Part shown: one piece after another, positions 9,480-45,309 of the stretch | Layout: each line of letters starts with the position of its first letter | Numbering within the stretch: position 1 is the first letter of the stretch | Origin: Trueperaceae bacterium | GTDB taxonomy: Bacteria; Deinococcota; Deinococci; Deinococcales; Trueperaceae | Reading direction: 5' to 3' | Assembly: GCA_034521815.1 (NCBI GenBank) | Contig: JAXHLW010000013.1 | Span: 512,001-576,000, forward strand | DNA: 64,000 nucleotides | Translations under genes and position numbers: made by a program | Notes under the pieces: generated by a model | What the model saw: the letters and a program-made list of their open reading frames with translations, nothing else | Told to the model about the DNA's origin: nothing | Databases searched by the model: none

Positions 9480-10316
9480 ATGCCGACCAAGAAATACAGA
9501 CCGTATACGCCCTCTCGCCGCTTCATGACGACGTCCGACTTCGCGGAGGTCACCAAGGACCGGCCCGAAAAGTCGCTGGTCGTTCGGATGAAGAAGAGCG
9601 GGGGCCGCAACAACCGCGGCCGGGTCACGTCGCGCTTCCGCGGCGGCGGCCACAAGCGTCGCTATCGCCTGATCGACTTCCGTCGTCGCGACAAGGAAGG
9701 CGTCCCGGCCAAGGTCGCCAGCATCGAGTACGATCCGAACCGCACCGCGAACATCGCGCTGCTCCACTACCTCGACGGCGAGAAGCGCTACATCATCGCG
9801 CCCGAGAGGCTCGAGGTGGGCATGCGGATCGTGGCGGGCGCGGACCAGGAGCCGATCGTCGGCAACGCCTTGCCGCTGCGCTTCATTCCCGTCGGCACGG
9901 TCGTCCACGCCGTGGAGCTCATTCCCGGCAAGGGCGCCCAGCTGGGCCGTAGCGCGGGCACCGGCATCCAGATCCAGGGTCGCGACGGCATCTACGTGAC
10001 GTTGCGGCTCCCCTCGGGCGAGCTGCGCCGGGTGCACGGCGAGTGCTACGCCACCATCGGAAACGTCGGCAACGCGGAGCACAAGAACCTGGTGCTCGGC
10101 AAGGCCGGCCGCAAGCGTTGGATGGGTCGCAAGCCCCACCAGCGCGGCCGGGCGATGAACCCGGTCGACCACCCGCACGGTGGTGGCGAGGGTCGTTCGA
10201 CCAGCGGTCGTCCGCCCGTCAGTCCGTGGGGCCAGCAGTCCAAGGGGCTTAAGACCCGCAACAAGCGCAAGGGGTCGAGCCGCTTCATCGTGCGTCGTCG
10301 GAAGGGGAGGAAGTAA
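9480..10316 (+). CDS. rplB: 50S ribosomal protein L2
   Basis: [26 protein letters not shown]. Confidence 0.99.
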
Positions 10317-10579
10317 TGTCCCGGAGCATGAAGAAGGGTCCGTTCATCGACGGTCACCTGCTGAAGAAGGTGGACGCCGCGAACGCTTCGGGCGACCGCC
10401 GCGTGATCAAGACCTGGAGCCGCCGCTCGACGGTCGTGCCCGAGATGGTCGGTCACACCATCGGCGTCTACAACGGCCGTCAGCACGTGCCGGTCTTCGT
10501 TCAGGAGAACATGGTCGGGCACAAGCTCGGCGAGTTCTCGCCCACCCGCACCTTCCGCGGACACGGCCGGAGGGACTGA
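10316..10579 (+). CDS. rpsS: 30S ribosomal protein S19
   Basis: [24 protein letters not shown]. Confidence 0.98.
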
Positions 10580-10580
10580 C

Positions 10581-10922
10581 GTGCAGGCCAAGGCGTCCCT
10601 TCGCATGCACCGCGCCACGCCGCGCAAGACGCGCCTGGTCGTCGACCAGATCCGCGGCAAGAACGTGGCCGAGGCGGAGTCGATCCTTCGCTTCACCGAC
10701 AAGCGCGTGGCGAAGCCGGTGCTCAAGCTGCTGAAGAGCGCGAAAGCGAACGCCGTCAACAACCACGACATGTTCGAGGACTCGCTGTTCGTCTCGGACG
10801 TGCAGGTCGGCGACGGCCCGACGCTCAAGCGCTTCCTGCCGCGGGCACGCGGCCGCGCCGACATGCTGCGCAAGCGCACGAGCAACATTTCGATCACGCT
10901 GGAGGAACGCAGTGGGGAATAA
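10581..10922 (+). CDS. rplV: 50S ribosomal protein L22
   Basis: PRKTRLVVDQIRGK, LKRFLPRARGRA. Confidence 0.97.
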   Translation: MQAKASLRMHRATPRKTRLVVDQIRGKNVAEAESILRFTDKRVAKPVLKLLKSAKANAVNNHDMFEDSLFVSDVQVGDGPTLKRFLPRARGRADMLRKRTSNISITLEERSGE

Positions 10923-38332: not shown

Positions 38333-38961
38333 GGCGACGCCTCGCTTCCGTCACCGATGGCGCCGACGGTGAGGCTGTAGCCGTAGAGGGCGTCGAGCCC
38401 CTCCTCGCCGTCCTGACGGCTGGCGTTCTGGAACAGCACGCCGAAGTCGGAGGACGTCTCGAGGTTCCGTACGAACGAGGCGAGCACCTCGAGATCTTCC
38501 ACGTTCCCTCCGATCGACAGCTCGGCCACGATGGGGGCGCCCTCGTAGCGGGCCGGGTCGGACTGGGGCGGGACCACGGAGCGCATGCTCAGGTTCCGGA
38601 AGTCGATCGTCGGGCGCGGACCGCCGCCCTGCCCCGGAAGGGTCTCGAGCAGCGAGACGATCTCGCCGGTCCAGACGATGCGGTTCTCACGGACGGCGTC
38701 GGCGACGGCGATCAGCTCGTTCAGCTGCCGCTGGCGTGCCTGCAGCGCTTCCTGCTCGTCGAGGAACGGGCGCAGCAGGGCCAGCTGTTCCTGGCGGGCC
38801 TGCACGTCACGTTCCAGGTTCTGCGTCGTCTGCCAGGCCAGGTACTGGACCACGAACACGACGCCGAACACGAGCAGGGGAACCATCACGGCCAGCAGGC
38901 GCCAGTACCCCGGCTCGCGCACGCGCTGAAGATTCTTCGGAAGTAGGTTGACGTTAATCAA
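38329..38961 (-). CDS. pilN: Type IV pilus assembly protein PilN
   Basis: INVNLLP N-terminal motif plus TM plus coiled coil; TTG start. Confidence 0.88.
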   Translation of the reverse strand: MINVNLLPKNLQRVREPGYWRLLAVMVPLLVFGVVFVVQYLAWQTTQNLERDVQARQEQLALLRPFLDEQEALQARQRQLNELIAVADAVRENRIVWTGEIVSLLETLPGQGGGPRPTIDFRNLSMRSVVPPQSDPARYEGAPIVAELSIGGNVEDLEVLASFVRNLETSSDFGVLFQNASRQDGEEGLDALYGYSLTVGAIGDGSEASP

Positions 38962-40141
38962 GGCCGCGCACCCCCCGAAGGGCCAGGCCCAGCGCGACCG
39001 ACAGCTCGGGGCCGACCTTGTCCAGGTACTGCTCGTCGAAGTTGCGCTCGTCGACGGTGACGCTCAGCCACGGGTCGCCGACCTCGACGCGGAAGCCCAG
39101 GGCGTCGCCGATCGCTTCGGACAGGCCGCGGAGCTTGGAGCCGCCGCCGGTCGCGAGCATTCGGTTGATCGTGGCGTCGCCGGTCTGGACGCGGAAGAAC
39201 TCGAGGCTGCGCCGGATCTCGGTGGTGAGATCGACCAGGACGGGCCGGAGCGCCTCGTACACGCGGCTAGGGCTGAACTGTTCGCGTTTGGCGTCGAAGT
39301 TGAGCAGCTCCTCTTCGTCCTCGGTCGGGATGGTCGCGGTGCCGTACTCGAGCTTGACCTCCTCGGCACTGTCGAAGTCCAGGCCGAAGCTGCGCTGCAC
39401 GGCGGCGGTGAAGTCGTCGCCGGACACGCCGATGTTCCGGTTCATCAGCACGCGGTCGCCTCGGACCAGCGTGATGGTGGTGGAGGTGGCGGCGATCTCG
39501 AGCACGACGCCGACCTCGTTGCCTTCGGTATAGCCGGCGCGGGTCAGCGTGACCTTGTTCAGGTGCTCTCCGAGCAACGCTCCCTTGAGGGAGCGGAGCA
39601 ACGCGAACGGCTTGACGTCGATCACGACCGGCTCGAGTCCGGCGAGCTTCAGGTACTCGACCTGCTGCGTGACGAGGTCCAAGCGCGCGGCGGCGATGAC
39701 CACCTCGAGCTGGCCGCCCTCTTCGATGTCGTCGGGGTTGTCCAGGACGTAGTAGTCCAGCACGACCTCGTCGATGGCGAACGGGATGTAGCGCTCTGCT
39801 TCCCACTTGATCGCCTCGTCGAGCTCTTGCAGCGACATCTTGGGGACGTGAATGTTACGGGTGATCGCCTGGCGGTTGCCGACGGCGGTCACCACGTAGC
39901 GCGTCGAGATGCCGGCCTCGTTGAACAAGGCCTTGATCTCGTCGGCCAGGCCTTGCGGGTCGACGACCTGATCCTCCTGGACGAGGCCAGGGGGCATGGG
40001 ACGCACCGCGAGGGTGGACAGGCTGGGCGGGCTGCCAGCGCGAAGCTCGACGACCTTGAGGTTGGCGGTACCTACCTCGAGGCCGACCGCTTCGATCTTC
40101 GGGCTGAGCAAGCGCGAGAATCGGTCGCGCAACGAGGCCAT
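38954..40141 (-). CDS. pilM: Type IV pilus assembly protein PilM
   Basis: VGLEVG..LKVVEL, IKWEAERYIPF, EIRRSLEFF, TGGGSKL, VALGLALR; SD GGAGGAG. Confidence 0.93.
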   Translation of the reverse strand: MASLRDRFSRLLSPKIEAVGLEVGTANLKVVELRAGSPPSLSTLAVRPMPPGLVQEDQVVDPQGLADEIKALFNEAGISTRYVVTAVGNRQAITRNIHVPKMSLQELDEAIKWEAERYIPFAIDEVVLDYYVLDNPDDIEEGGQLEVVIAAARLDLVTQQVEYLKLAGLEPVVIDVKPFALLRSLKGALLGEHLNKVTLTRAGYTEGNEVGVVLEIAATSTTITLVRGDRVLMNRNIGVSGDDFTAAVQRSFGLDFDSAEEVKLEYGTATIPTEDEEELLNFDAKREQFSPSRVYEALRPVLVDLTTEIRRSLEFFRVQTGDATINRMLATGGGSKLRGLSEAIGDALGFRVEVGDPWLSVTVDERNFDEQYLDKVGPELSVALGLALRGVRGLD

Positions 40142-40237
40142 GATGACTCCTCCCACAGATTCTCTAGGGAGGCTAGCATGGTGCGATCGAGGCGATTGGT
40201 GAAAAACCCCCGCCCCACGCGCGTTCGCCGCGTCGGC

Positions 40238-42142
<1,905 letters not shown>

Positions 42143-42196
42143 GATCCGAGTGTATCCCCGCCGGGACCGACCGGACGGTGTGCCCGCGCCCGAGCC

Positions 42197-43543
42197 CTAC
42201 GGCGCGCCGCGCGCCAGGTCGTTGAAGCGCACGTGAGCGCCGTGGAACTGCAGGTCGACCGCGCCGACCGGCCCGTTGCGCTGCTTGCCGATCAGGATCT
42301 CCGCGATGCCCTGCTTCTCGGAGTGGGGATCGTAGTACTCGTCGCGGTAGATGAACATCACCAGGTCGGCGTCCTGCTCGATCGCTCCCGACTCGCGCAG
42401 GTCGGACAGCATCGGCCGCTTGTTCGGCCGACTCTCGACCGCGCGCGACAGCTGCGAGAGCACCAGGACGGGCACGTCCAGCTCGCGAGCCAGCGCCTTC
42501 AGGCCGCGCGAGATGCTGCTGATCTCCTGCTGGCGGTTCTCGGAGCCGAAGCGGCCGGCGGTGTGACCCGACATCAGCTGCAGGTAGTCGACCACGATCA
42601 GCCCCAGGTCGTGCTCCGCCATCAGCCTTCGCGACCGGCTGCGCAGCTCCATCACCGTCATGTCGGCGTGATCGTCGATGAAGATCTTGGCCTCGCTCAT
42701 CCGTCCCGCGGTGTCGGCCAGGCGCTGGAAGTCGCGATCGGTGAGCTGACCGTTGCGGACACGGCTCATGTCGACCCGCGCCTCGCTGCAGATCATGCGC
42801 GTGACGAGCTGAACCCCCGACATCTCCAGACTGAACAGCCCGACCGTCTTCTTCTCGCGGAGCGCCACGTTCAGGGCGATCGACAACGCCAGCGCCGTCT
42901 TGCCCATGCTGGGCCGCGCAGCCAGGACGTTCAGGCTGGAGGGCTGCAGCCCGGCGGTCAGCTGGTCGAGCTCCTTGAATCCCGTTCGGATGCCCGAGAC
43001 CGGATTGGGGTTCGCGAACAGCTCGTTGATGTGAGCGAACGTCTCGGTGACCAGCTCGCTCATCGAGCCGAACCCGTCGGACCGCTTGCTGCTGGCCAGC
43101 TCGAAGATGGCCTTCTCGGAGGCGTCCAGCACCTCCTCGAGCGGCATCGACTGGTCGTACGCGGTCTGCATGATCTGTCCGCTAGCGGAGATCAGGTCCC
43201 TGAGCACCGCCTTCTCGGTGACGATGCGGGCGTAGCTCTCGGCGTACGCGGCGGTGGGCACGCCGTCGGCCAGGCCGATCAGGTACGGGACGTTGCCGAC
43301 CTCGTCGAGCTCGCTGCTCTGGCGCAGCTCCTCGGTGAGGGTGACGAGGTCGATCGGGTCTCCGCGATGGAACAGGCGCTCCATGCCCCGGAACACCTTG
43401 CGGTGTCCCTCCTTGTAGAAGTGCTCCGCGCGGAGCGTGCCCTCGAGGGTGGCGTACACCTCGTTGTCGAGAAGGATGCTGCCGAGCACGCTCTGCTCGG
43501 CGTCGAGGTTCTGCGGGGGGGTCCGGCTCTCCACGGCGGTCAT
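42197..43543 (-). CDS. dnaB: Replicative DNA helicase
   Basis: PPQNLDAEQSVLG, AARPSMGKT, DYLQLM, LSDLRESGAIEQDAD, KQRNGP; no intein. Confidence 0.98.
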   Translation of the reverse strand: MTAVESRTPPQNLDAEQSVLGSILLDNEVYATLEGTLRAEHFYKEGHRKVFRGMERLFHRGDPIDLVTLTEELRQSSELDEVGNVPYLIGLADGVPTAAYAESYARIVTEKAVLRDLISASGQIMQTAYDQSMPLEEVLDASEKAIFELASSKRSDGFGSMSELVTETFAHINELFANPNPVSGIRTGFKELDQLTAGLQPSSLNVLAARPSMGKTALALSIALNVALREKKTVGLFSLEMSGVQLVTRMICSEARVDMSRVRNGQLTDRDFQRLADTAGRMSEAKIFIDDHADMTVMELRSRSRRLMAEHDLGLIVVDYLQLMSGHTAGRFGSENRQQEISSISRGLKALARELDVPVLVLSQLSRAVESRPNKRPMLSDLRESGAIEQDADLVMFIYRDEYYDPHSEKQGIAEILIGKQRNGPVGAVDLQFHGAHVRFNDLARGAP

Positions 43544-43626
43544 CGTACCTGCGCGGCGGTCGGGCGGGTCGGCGGCTGCGCGTCACGTACCCGGGCGCGC
43601 CGGGCCCGGCCGGTACACTGTCGACG

Positions 43627-45309
43627 ATGACGCCGCTCTGGATGGTCCTCGTGTCGCTGGTCGCAGGCTGGGCGATCGGCTCGGCGCCGCTGGGCGCGTG
43701 GTGGATCCGCCGTGCCGCGGGGCGCGATCCGCGCGACCTGAACCCGTCCCTGCTGGGCGTCGAGAACGTGTTCCGGCTGCTCGGACCGCCCGTCGCGGCG
43801 GTCGGCTTCATCCTCGACGTGCTCAAGGGCGCGGTGGCGGTGGTGATCGCGCCCGCGGCCGGCGCGGCGGCGGTGGGCGTCCTGGCGGGCCACGTCCTTC
43901 CGCCCCCCTGGCCCGGCGACGCGCGCGCCCCGCGAGGCCGCGGCAACGGCGTGCTGGCGGGGGCGCTGACGGCGCTGGTCGCTGCGGGCGACATGCCGTT
44001 CCTGGCGGCGGGCGCGGGGGCGGCCGTGTACGCCGCGGCGTTGGCGCAGTGGGGGTTCGCGACGCCGGCGACGCTGCTGGGGCTGCTGACGATGCTGATG
44101 TGGCCCGGTGCCCCCGTGGGCGTCTCCGCGGGCTGGCTGGCGCTGTTGACGGTGCGCGGCCTTCCGTCGCTGGCGCGCATCGCGGACGGCACCGAGCCAC
44201 GGCTGGGCGATCCTCCCCCGGTGCGGGGTCTGGCACCGGGCCGGGTGCGCGCGGCGTTCATGATCCATCCGATGACGCTGGACGACATCTGGCAGGTCCC
44301 GAGCCAGCGCTGGGTGCATCTCCTTCACCGGCGGGGCTGGCTGCCCGAGCCCGCGCTTCGGCGGGTCTTGCCGTGGCTGCGTCCCCAGCTCCACGGGATC
44401 GTGCGCGGCGTCGAGCTGGCCGACGGACGGACGCTGGAGGTGGTGCTGATCGGCGGTCCGATGCTTCCCGACCAGATCCGCGCCGACCCGGCGACGGCGA
44501 CCCGAATGGCGATCCGGGGCGCCCAGCTGGCCCGCGAGATGGGCGCCGAGGCGTTCGGTCTGGGCGCGTTCTGGTCCACGGTGGGCGACAAGGGACGGAG
44601 GGTCCAGGAGGCGGTGCCGGACCTGCCCGTCACGCACGGTGGCAGCTACACCGCCGCGACCGTCGGAGCGGCGATCCCCGGTCTGCTGGAGCGGTTCCGC
44701 GAGGAGGGCGGGACCTTGGCGCGCAGCACCGCCGCGGTCGTGGGCGCCAACGGCGTGGTCGCGTTCGGCGTCGCGCGCACGCTGGCGGAGCACGTCGGCG
44801 AGCTGATCCTGATCGGGACCGATCCGGTTCGCCTGGAACGGAGCGCCGCGACGCTACGGCACAAGCATCCGACGCTGGAGGTCCGCACCTCGACCGACCC
44901 GGCGGACGTGGCTGCGGCCGACCTGGTGTTCACGGCCACCAGCGATCCGGGCGTCGTCATCCGGCCGGAGCATGTCCGGCCGGGCGCCTGGATCTACGAT
45001 CTGGGTCGTCCGGCCGACGTCGATCCCGCCGTCCGCGAGGTGCCCGGCGTGCAGCTCGTGCCCGGCGGCGTGGTTCGGCCGCCCGGGCGAAGCGTGAGCG
45101 ACCTGGACCTGCACTTCGGCGACGGGCTGGTGCCCGCCTGCCTGGCGGAGACGATGATCCTGGCGGCCAGCGGCGAGCCGCACCGCGCCAAGACCGGTGG
45201 CACGGCCCGGGCGGCCGACGTGGCCTGGTTCCTGCAGGAGGGGCAGCGCCTGGGGTTCGAGATCGTGACGCGCGACGACCGGGTGGTGCGCGCCGAGGTC
45301 GTGCCTTGA
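43627..45309 (+). CDS. PlsY-like membrane domain fused to an acyl-ACP-reductase-like NAD(P)-binding domain
   Basis: N-terminus: GSAP, LDVLKG, LAGHVLP, GTEPRLG; C-terminus: AFMIHP, GLGAFWSTVG, THGGSYTA, VVGANG, DLGRP, PACLAETM. Confidence 0.7.
   Translation: MTPLWMVLVSLVAGWAIGSAPLGAWWIRRAAGRDPRDLNPSLLGVENVFRLLGPPVAAVGFILDVLKGAVAVVIAPAAGAAAVGVLAGHVLPPPWPGDARAPRGRGNGVLAGALTALVAAGDMPFLAAGAGAAVYAAALAQWGFATPATLLGLLTMLMWPGAPVGVSAGWLALLTVRGLPSLARIADGTEPRLGDPPPVRGLAPGRVRAAFMIHPMTLDDIWQVPSQRWVHLLHRRGWLPEPALRRVLPWLRPQLHGIVRGVELADGRTLEVVLIGGPMLPDQIRADPATATRMAIRGAQLAREMGAEAFGLGAFWSTVGDKGRRVQEAVPDLPVTHGGSYTAATVGAAIPGLLERFREEGGTLARSTAAVVGANGVVAFGVARTLAEHVGELILIGTDPVRLERSAATLRHKHPTLEVRTSTDPADVAAADLVFTATSDPGVVIRPEHVRPGAWIYDLGRPADVDPAVREVPGVQLVPGGVVRPPGRSVSDLDLHFGDGLVPACLAETMILAASGEPHRAKTGGTARAADVAWFLQEGQRLGFEIVTRDDRVVRAEVVP

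Follow-up and report, generated by a model that had tools for sequence, protein, structure and literature searches.

What might a protein do that joins a PlsY-like membrane domain to a domain resembling the cyanobacterial acyl-acyl carrier protein (ACP) reductase (AAR), in a bacterium that also has a normal PlsY? The question is raised by one gene in a 64,000-nt stretch of DNA from a Trueperaceae bacterium of the phylum Deinococcota (assembly GCA_034521815.1, contig JAXHLW010000013.1, positions 512,001 to 576,000 of the forward strand). This stretch is called the window below, and positions are given in its coordinates unless another locus is named. N-glyceroyl-alkylamine phosphoglycolipids are a chemical signature of Deinococcus, Thermus and relatives, and the 2'-O-phosphatidyl-3'-O-glycosyl-N-glyceroyl alkylamine lipid has been called a chemical marker that identifies the Deinococcus-Thermus lineage unambiguously (PMC3035268). 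A passage of a 2022 paper lists as unidentified both the enzymes for a third hydrophobic chain found specifically in T. thermophilus and those exchanging the phosphoglycolipid's polar head (PMC9636437). In the searchable literature no enzyme is named for the alkylamine chain, and literature searches, supplements left out, found no description of a PlsY-AAR fusion. The gene encodes a conserved uncharacterised enzyme built from two known domains. We propose, tentatively and with a little less than even confidence, that it is a membrane-bound NADPH-dependent enzyme making fatty aldehyde for reduced-chain lipids such as the N-glyceroyl alkylamines. It is a concrete candidate enzyme, and it would reduce the open question of alkylamine-lipid biosynthesis to a single-gene experiment. 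Both Thermus thermophilus and Deinococcus radiodurans are genetically tractable.

A PlsY-like domain fused to an AAR-like domain

The fusion gene is a single open reading frame (ORF) at 43627..45309 (+), with an ATG start and 560 codons plus stop (P0002), and the ORF call, codon-position G+C and full-length homologues all mark it as a complete coding sequence. Its G+C at third codon positions is 0.92, the same as in the real genes nearby. An initial annotation, made from the letters of the window, had set the start at 43614, which lies 13 nt upstream of the ATG and out of frame; translation from there gives Arg/Gly-rich nonsense. One relative, P0015 (403 aa), is 99% identical over 70% of the query, and because its first residues match the frame read from 43614, its assembly probably has a frameshift or miscalled start that costs it most of the PlsY-like domain.

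The motifs on which the initial annotation relied are all present. In the N-terminal part these are GSAP (aa 18-21), PSLLGVEN (40-47), LDVLKG (63-68), LAGHVLP (86-92), RGLPSL (177-182) and GTEPR (188-192). LGAFWS (312-317), THGGSYTA (336-343), VVGANG (371-376), DLGRP (458-462), GGVV (480-483) and ACLAE (504-508) follow in the C-terminal part, in the order that had been given. The fusion of a PlsY-like to an AAR-like domain is thus confirmed, and with near full-length copies across the phylum it is far beyond chance. An AlphaFold2 model from an alignment of 56 rows (predicted local distance difference test, pLDDT, 92.4; predicted template modelling score, pTM, 0.89) places a short Pro-rich linker at aa 197-209 (44215..44253, +), with lower pLDDT (78-84) and without secondary structure, between the two domains. 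When these were predicted as separate chains the complex score was 0.00 against a mark of 0.32, a result that weighs neither way on docking. Conservation below is counted over 144 aligned relatives, namely 120 database matches, 14 proteins translated from genomes of the phylum's other families and 10 distantly related representatives, and the residue roles used in the counts were taken from published work on PlsY (PMC5700162) and AAR (PMC7089970).

The reductase domain

The C-terminal domain (aa 210-552; 44254..45282, +) opens with an invariant AFMIHP and was recognized by structural alignment to AAR with VIA-align, by NCBIfam, by matches to Protein Data Bank (PDB) sequences and by Foldseek. 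The three-domain AAR fold is matched over its full length: residues 208-551 of the model align with residues 1-341 of the AAR chain at Z 31.2 (322/341 residues), and Foldseek gives E 1.5e-17. The next fold match after AAR is the terminal amidation domain (TAD) of carmabin (Z 28.5), so that the AAR-like nature of this half, as first proposed, is borne out by Z scores of 28-31. Pfam places the Rossmann-type domain PF01488 at residues 362-477. At the sequence level the top NCBIfam match is the N-terminal reductase region of PigE (E 3.2e-24), followed by glutamyl-tRNA reductase, PlsY and cyanobacterial AAR, all far under their equivalog cut-offs; the PDB sequences matching this part are the PigE N-terminus (4ppm, E 4.2e-15) and AAR (6jzu, E 3e-8). 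Grouping with true glutamyl-tRNA or shikimate reductases, an outcome that would have spoken against the initial annotation, was not found, because AAR is matched at Z 31 and those enzymes at Z 13-16, over ~130 Rossmann residues or with a root-mean-square deviation (rmsd) above 5. The hemA models score 25-36 bits on the fusion protein against cut-offs of 209-429.

The candidate catalytic cysteine is kept as well. Because ACLAE aligns on the ACFAE of AAR, Cys505 (codon 45139..45141, +) is the counterpart of the acyl-accepting Cys294, and the position is Cys in 144/144 relatives and also in 118/118 proteins of a set from Armatimonadota and Bacillota. Cys294 of AAR bears the acyl-enzyme thioester (PMC7089970). 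The dinucleotide-binding loop VVGANG (aa 371-376; 44737..44754, +) aligns with 162-GATGDIG-168 of AAR. Within its core, GANGVVA, the first two glycines (G162 and G165 of AAR, here G373 and G376) are present in all 144 relatives, and the third position is Ala in 138/144. The Arg at the position of AAR R193 is kept in the window protein and in 143/144 relatives.

Domains of the AAR family have a known or proposed chemistry in which a carrier-bound thioester is converted into an aldehyde, followed by deformylation (AAR, PMC7089970) or transamination. Compared with cyanobacterial AAR (6JZU, 6JZY), the fusion has the same fold over 341 residues, the Cys that accepts the acyl group, the first two glycines of the dinucleotide loop and R193; it differs in its 22% identity, its added membrane domain, the Thr at R189 and the lack of a detected oxygenase partner. 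Aldehyde-deformylating oxygenase (PF11266) was not found in the source genome, which is 83.5% complete, nor in the two control genomes, those of T. thermophilus and D. radiodurans. The closer likeness in sequence is to the reductase domains of PigE, TamH and KecF, with PigE the best match, and these deliver aldehydes that are turned into amines, including a C12 fatty amine. The reductase domain of TamH, together with the acyl-carrier enzyme TamA and the transaminase domain of TamH, converts a C12 fatty acid into a C12 amine (PMC9594044); PigE reduces a thioester and then transaminates (PMC8341465), and the same sequence is predicted for KecF (PMC6498172). In contrast to these proteins, the fusion has no aminotransferase inside or adjacent (Pfam found no class-III aminotransferase domain in it), its partner is a PlsY-fold membrane domain, and it sits in the core genome rather than in a secondary-metabolite cluster. 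The carmabin TAD (PDB 9E4S and others) shares the AAR-like fold and binds its nucleotide next to an invariant Cys. It differs in that it terminates a non-ribosomal peptide synthetase module, prefers NAD and is only 18-19% identical to the fusion; in the source, NAD is bound beside the Cys and the chemistry is given as unproven (bioRxiv 10.1101/2024.10.28.620694).

The membrane domain

The N-terminal ~190 residues were rightly described as a PlsY scaffold. The domain (aa 1-196; 43627..44214, +) was delimited from PF02660, alignment to PlsY 5xj7 and its hydrophobic segments: PF02660 matches residues 14-159 (E 8.4e-18; 65.4 bits against a gathering cut-off of 24.1), and the seven-helix fold of PlsY is matched by model residues 4-193 at Z 18.4 and rmsd 2.8 (176/193 residues). 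What has changed is the substrate site. Motif 1 is remodelled to PSLLGVEN (43744..43767, +), which stands where the canonical PlsY of the same genome has GSGNxGATN and which puts Glu46 at the Thr41 position of Aquifex PlsY. The remnant of motif 3, RGLPSL...GTEPR (aa 177-192; 44155..44202, +), has Gly178 for His177 and Ser181 for Asn180, with Arg184 and Glu190 kept. Relative to Aquifex PlsY (5XJ5-5XJ9), the fusion keeps the seven-helix fold, LDxxKG, the GH histidine, the glycine-rich loop 3, Arg45, Arg183 and Glu189, the Arg45 and Lys104 positions being R50 and R105 here; it loses S35, S142, H177 and N180, replaces T41 with Glu, G36 with His and G102 with Arg, and adds a reductase of 350 residues. 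Over the 144 relatives the S35 position is P in 83, A in 55 and S in 2 (P40 in the window protein), the H177 position Q in 58, H in 47 and G in 19, and the N180 position A in 72, S in 50 and N in 15. The genus of the window is the most diverged branch, with VRGLPSL where most relatives have WRxKENL.

These replacements require one correction. The initial annotation spoke of a lost catalytic His. The His is indeed absent from the window protein, but it is present in 47/144 relatives, and in the structural work on PlsY its role is to place the 2-OH of glycerol-3-phosphate rather than to act as a catalytic base (PMC5700162). For that reason the change should rather be worded as a predicted loss of the glycerol-3-phosphate pocket, and the replacement of the residues binding this substrate (positions S35, H177 and N180) stands. 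Relatives are publicly annotated as 'glycerol-3-phosphate acyltransferase', a label that PF02660, well above its gathering score, would fit. That the protein is a redundant enzyme of this kind is nevertheless very improbable: mutation of S35, H177 or N180 each cuts the activity of Aquifex PlsY by >90% (PMC5700162), and the PlsY equivalog TIGR00023 scores 32.5 bits on the fusion against a cut-off of 137.2. Moreover, the source genome (2.63 Mb, 13 contigs) holds three PF02660 matches, which are the fusion, a standalone paralogue and a canonical PlsY with GSGNIGATN and HRENL that reaches 161 bits with TIGR00023. Because PlsX and this normal PlsY are both present, the fusion is a paralogue and not the housekeeping acyltransferase. 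Such paralogy is the rule in the phylum, as all 61 genomes that are >=95% complete carry 3 to 5 PF02660 matches. The standalone paralogue (G000:C13:1091330-1091872; L002:1468-2070, +) lies outside the window, has the motif 1 GSGNMGAMN and no HxxN motif 3, and scores 98.6 bits with TIGR00023.

The other half of the PlsY site persists. His89 in LAGHVLP (aa 86-92; 43882..43902, +) corresponds to His92 of the 'phosphate hole' that holds the acyl-phosphate in PlsY and is His in 144/144. RGRGNG (aa 103-108; 43933..43950, +) is the counterpart of PlsY loop 3 (GGKGxA), in which K104 has become Arg in 141/144 and G105 is kept in 143/144. Other residues are newly fixed, with Glu at the T41 position in 137/144, His at G36 in 117/144 and Arg at G102 (Arg103) in 144/144. 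Thus, by sequence comparison, His89 and the loop are invariant in the acyl-phosphate site, yet Thr41, which in PlsY binds the acyl-phosphate carbonyl (PMC5700162), has given way to Glu. The domain would offer an example of the core lipid enzyme PlsY with a rebuilt substrate pocket and a retained anion hole. It could alternatively serve only to anchor a soluble-type AAR in the membrane, with the aldehyde used otherwise. The membrane domain is indeed the less conserved one, with 26% of positions conserved at >=80% against 52% in the reductase domain, and AAR-like proteins commonly occur on their own (61/129 domains in the tree set described below, and 5/5 of the other Armatimonadota genomes). 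We regard an anchor as decidedly unlikely, however, in view of which residues are conserved: the invariant ones (D64, K67, H89, R103, G106 and E190) are polar and lie at the PlsY active site rather than being bulk hydrophobic, new polar residues (Glu46 and Arg103) have been fixed, and aldehyde-deformylating oxygenase was not found in the three genomes named above.

Distribution and phylogeny

Conservation across the phylum was surveyed in 301 evenly sampled Deinococcota genomes from all five families, including the source genome and one unpublished genome (G252). Matches to the fusion at E <= 1e-5 occur in 297/301 genomes; 288 have a near full-length copy (E <= 1e-100, as read from the table), nine have weak matches and four have none. 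All 112 genomes sampled from family f2, to which the genomes sampled as Deinococcus belong, have the gene. This last count bears on whether the aldehyde (or an alcohol made from it) enters long-chain 1,2-diols or alkyl-ether lipids and not alkylamines. The ether-lipid enzyme ElbD of myxobacteria, in which a reductase is likewise joined to a glycerolipid acyltransferase, speaks for such a use. Compounds consistent with iso-C18 and iso-C15 1,2-diols were described from Truepera radiovictrix (PMC3072082), whose polar lipids, according to the same source, had no comparison with those of relatives, and 1,2-diols are reported in some Thermus and Meiothermus (PMC3072082; PMC3035268). As far as these sources go, however, the diols are minor and not known from Deinococcus, whose family has the gene in every genome sampled, and no ether lipids of the phylum surfaced in the literature consulted. 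A role in diol or ether lipids is accordingly unlikely, and alkylamine formation remains the use of the aldehyde that we favour.

The family extends beyond Deinococcota. Source annotations place relatives in metagenome-assembled genomes (MAGs) of Armatimonadota and in MAGs named 'Bacillota/Firmicutes bacterium', with 46-60% identity to a Bacillota MAG protein, and a sister group occurs in Patescibacteria. In the Armatimonadota/Bacillota set (n=118), ~51 proteins have a near-canonical motif 1 and 102 keep H177, while G36 is His in 108 and G102 is Arg in 117, as in the Deinococcota proteins. In five other Armatimonadota genomes, reached by another route, the AAR-like protein occurs only on its own, with PlsY encoded separately. 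N-glyceroyl alkylamines are reported in Bacillota, including Moorella thermoacetica (a table entry in PMC13274423), and the title of a 2025 paper states that alkylamine lipids dominate the lipidome of some Bacillota (Bale et al. 2025, cited in PMC13274423).

An exhaustive HMMER search returned 1880 relatives at E <= 1e-3. Pfam architectures of 26 of them show the AAR-like domain fused to intact PlsY, to PlsC, to START/polyketide-cyclase domains (often with PilZ) or to class-III aminotransferase. The fusions with a PlsC-type acyltransferase are P0170 and P0210; those with a START/polyketide-cyclase lipid-binding domain, often with PilZ, are P0161, P0168, P0176, P0193 and P0207; and those with a class-III aminotransferase, with or without an adenylation domain, are P0189, P0254 and P0272. 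In a tree calculated quickly by maximum likelihood from 129 reductase domains (midpoint root only; rows whose domain match covered <260 profile positions left out), the Deinococcota-type fusions, 11 rows and one fragment, make up one clade (support 99). Its sister group consists of 18 fusions with an intact PlsY (support 99), and the two groups together are supported at 100. Because four further PlsY fusions (P0180, P0188, P0256 and P0261) branch apart from this clade, elsewhere in the tree, their position suggests an independent fusion event. One of these four carries the source name 'fatty aldehyde-generating acyl-ACP reductase'.

Proposed function

In the mechanism that we propose, the protein would be a two-domain inner-membrane enzyme with the AAR-type C-terminal domain in the cytoplasm. 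A long acyl chain would be loaded on Cys505 and the thioester reduced with NAD(P)H, which would yield a fatty aldehyde on the surface of the membrane. The domain derived from PlsY, no longer binding glycerol-3-phosphate but keeping a buried anion ('phosphate') hole and a lipid groove, may keep a lipid at the face of the membrane, where it would either hand over the acyl donor (acyl-phosphate from PlsX) or take the aldehyde or a derivative of it for a second step. The product would enter the reduced-chain lipids of the lineage, most plausibly as the alkylamine of the N-glyceroyl-alkylamine phosphoglycolipids. We infer this last link, and favour the alkylamine role, because the gene is conserved throughout the phylum, the domain family has amine-forming precedents and no enzyme is known for the step.

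Several observations weigh against this proposal. The AAR equivalog TIGR04058 scores 31.9 bits against a cut-off of 449.7. R189 and R193 are the 2'-phosphate arginines of AAR, and the window protein keeps only R193; the R189 position is Arg in 125/144 relatives and Thr here. Profile searches of four Trueperaceae-level genomes (G142, G189, G238 and G298) gave standalone PlsY only and no AAR-like domain, and G238 is a single contig that is 97% complete. The family occurs in Armatimonadota, and no record of alkylamine lipids there surfaced in the literature consulted. The loci from Trueperaceae, Thermaceae, Deinococcus and Armatimonadota-like contigs share no neighbouring gene for an aminotransferase, a glycosyltransferase or a phosphatidyl transferase, and among the loci and proteins examined neither a neighbour nor a fusion links the gene to lipids of the alkylamine or diol type. 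A search for longer proteins gave no triple-fused form, which is weak evidence.

A further objection comes from the sister group. Source or record names assign the intact-PlsY fusions to Berkelbacteria, Saccharibacteria and the 'Patescibacteria group', and four fusion loci were drawn from a contig scan by PlsY motif pattern that mostly returned ordinary PlsY (L033:7962-9728, +, with gpsA at 9725-10708; L034:7935-9854; and L039 among them). These proteins, for example Berkelbacteria L033, share the architecture and a linker motif AF.xH...D.xQ with the window protein; they differ in keeping PlsY motifs 1 and 3, and their identity to it is 24-28%. In a complete Berkelbacteria chromosome the fusion and gpsA overlap by 4 nt. 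The fusion is the sole PF02660 match in 3/4 Patescibacteria genomes, in which the PlsY domain must be the real acyltransferase. PlsX was found in 1/4, FakB/DegV in 0/4, ACP in 1/4 and ketoacyl synthase in 0/4, counts to be read with the fact that completeness figures are missing for three of the four genomes. An aldehyde-forming reductase makes little sense there, because fatty-acid synthase, PlsX and FakB were largely not found. The obvious source of the acyl donor for PlsY is the fused domain: the domain pair may be built around acyl-phosphate, through phosphorolysis like that of glyceraldehyde-3-phosphate dehydrogenase or the reverse of it, and the Patescibacteria fusion may be a PlsX-independent feed for PlsY. 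These fusions suggest an unrecognised acyl-donor supply to PlsY where neither fatty-acid synthase nor PlsX was found.

The same chemistry may apply in Deinococcota. The Cys thioester, formed from an acyl-thioester or from an aldehyde and NAD(P)+, would be converted into acyl-phosphate by phosphorolysis of the type of glyceraldehyde-3-phosphate dehydrogenase or aspartate-semialdehyde dehydrogenase, without release of an aldehyde, and the PlsY-derived domain would pass the acyl group to an acceptor other than glycerol-3-phosphate, as a self-feeding membrane acyltransferase. Because of the Patescibacteria sister group, which the reductase tree joins to the Deinococcota clade with full support and in which the fusion overlaps gpsA, such an acyl-phosphate module is the strongest rival to fatty-aldehyde formation, and we consider it a real if doubtful possibility. 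It would also fit the at least two origins of PlsY-AAR-like fusions, the PlsC fusions to the AAR-like domain, and the phosphate hole being the part of PlsY that stays invariant. Weighing on the other side, the source genome already has PlsX and a canonical PlsY, and the residue that binds the acyl-phosphate carbonyl is replaced by Glu. To our knowledge, no characterised AAR-family member carries out phosphorolysis, which also counts against an acyl-phosphate module. The sources on TamH, AAR and the carmabin TAD add no such case (PMC9594044; PMC7089970; bioRxiv 10.1101/2024.10.28.620694). Neither fatty-aldehyde formation nor the acyl-phosphate module would make the protein a glycerol-3-phosphate acyltransferase.

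A more specific form of our preferred aldehyde-forming reading is that the fusion is itself an N-glyceroyl-alkylamine synthase, which we think improbable. Fatty aldehyde from the reductase domain would be aminated by a separate transaminase or in place, after which the remodelled PlsY domain would exchange the partners of the PlsY reaction, with 1,3-bisphosphoglycerate, held in the conserved phosphate hole and by the arginines, as the acyl-phosphate donor and the membrane-bound alkylamine as the nucleophile. The newly fixed Glu46, at the place where PlsY holds the lipid head group, would bind and deprotonate the ammonium, and the product would be an amide analogue of lysophosphatidic acid. This is chemically plausible, because 1,3-bisphosphoglycerate acylates amino groups (PMC10915168, PMC8795555). 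If it were true, the intact-PlsY form of Patescibacteria would be a PlsX-independent start of phospholipid synthesis.

Genomic neighbourhood

Neighbourhoods were compared over 16 loci from five Deinococcota families and 80 metagenome loci, mostly near Thermaceae and the related family f4. In the window, DnaB, FtsH and PilMNOQ lie upstream of the fusion, and PrmA, SecDF and IF-2 downstream. In Thermaceae and f4 the order is infC, rplT, a small export protein, the fusion and a phosphorylase-family gene (PNP_UDP_1, possibly mqnB), with mqnA where annotated (L017). In Armatimonadota-like metagenome loci upp, SHMT and RF-1 flank the fusion. The housekeeping surroundings at all loci examined thus fit a core membrane function and point to no partner. 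At three Deinococcus-family loci a 520-aa PLD-like (PLDc_2) protein and lytB adjoin or lie near the fusion (L022:6360-7922, -; L023:5087-6694, +; L024:10765-12318, +). The PLD-like protein was rejected as a partner, since it was not found in the source genome with that query. A promoter and terminator scan gave no sites.

The window has a G+C content of ~72% and therefore holds many long spurious ORFs. A 1560-aa open frame at 38948-43630 (+) was rejected on this account as a high-G+C artefact, being antisense to the real minus-strand genes for PilM, FtsH and DnaB.

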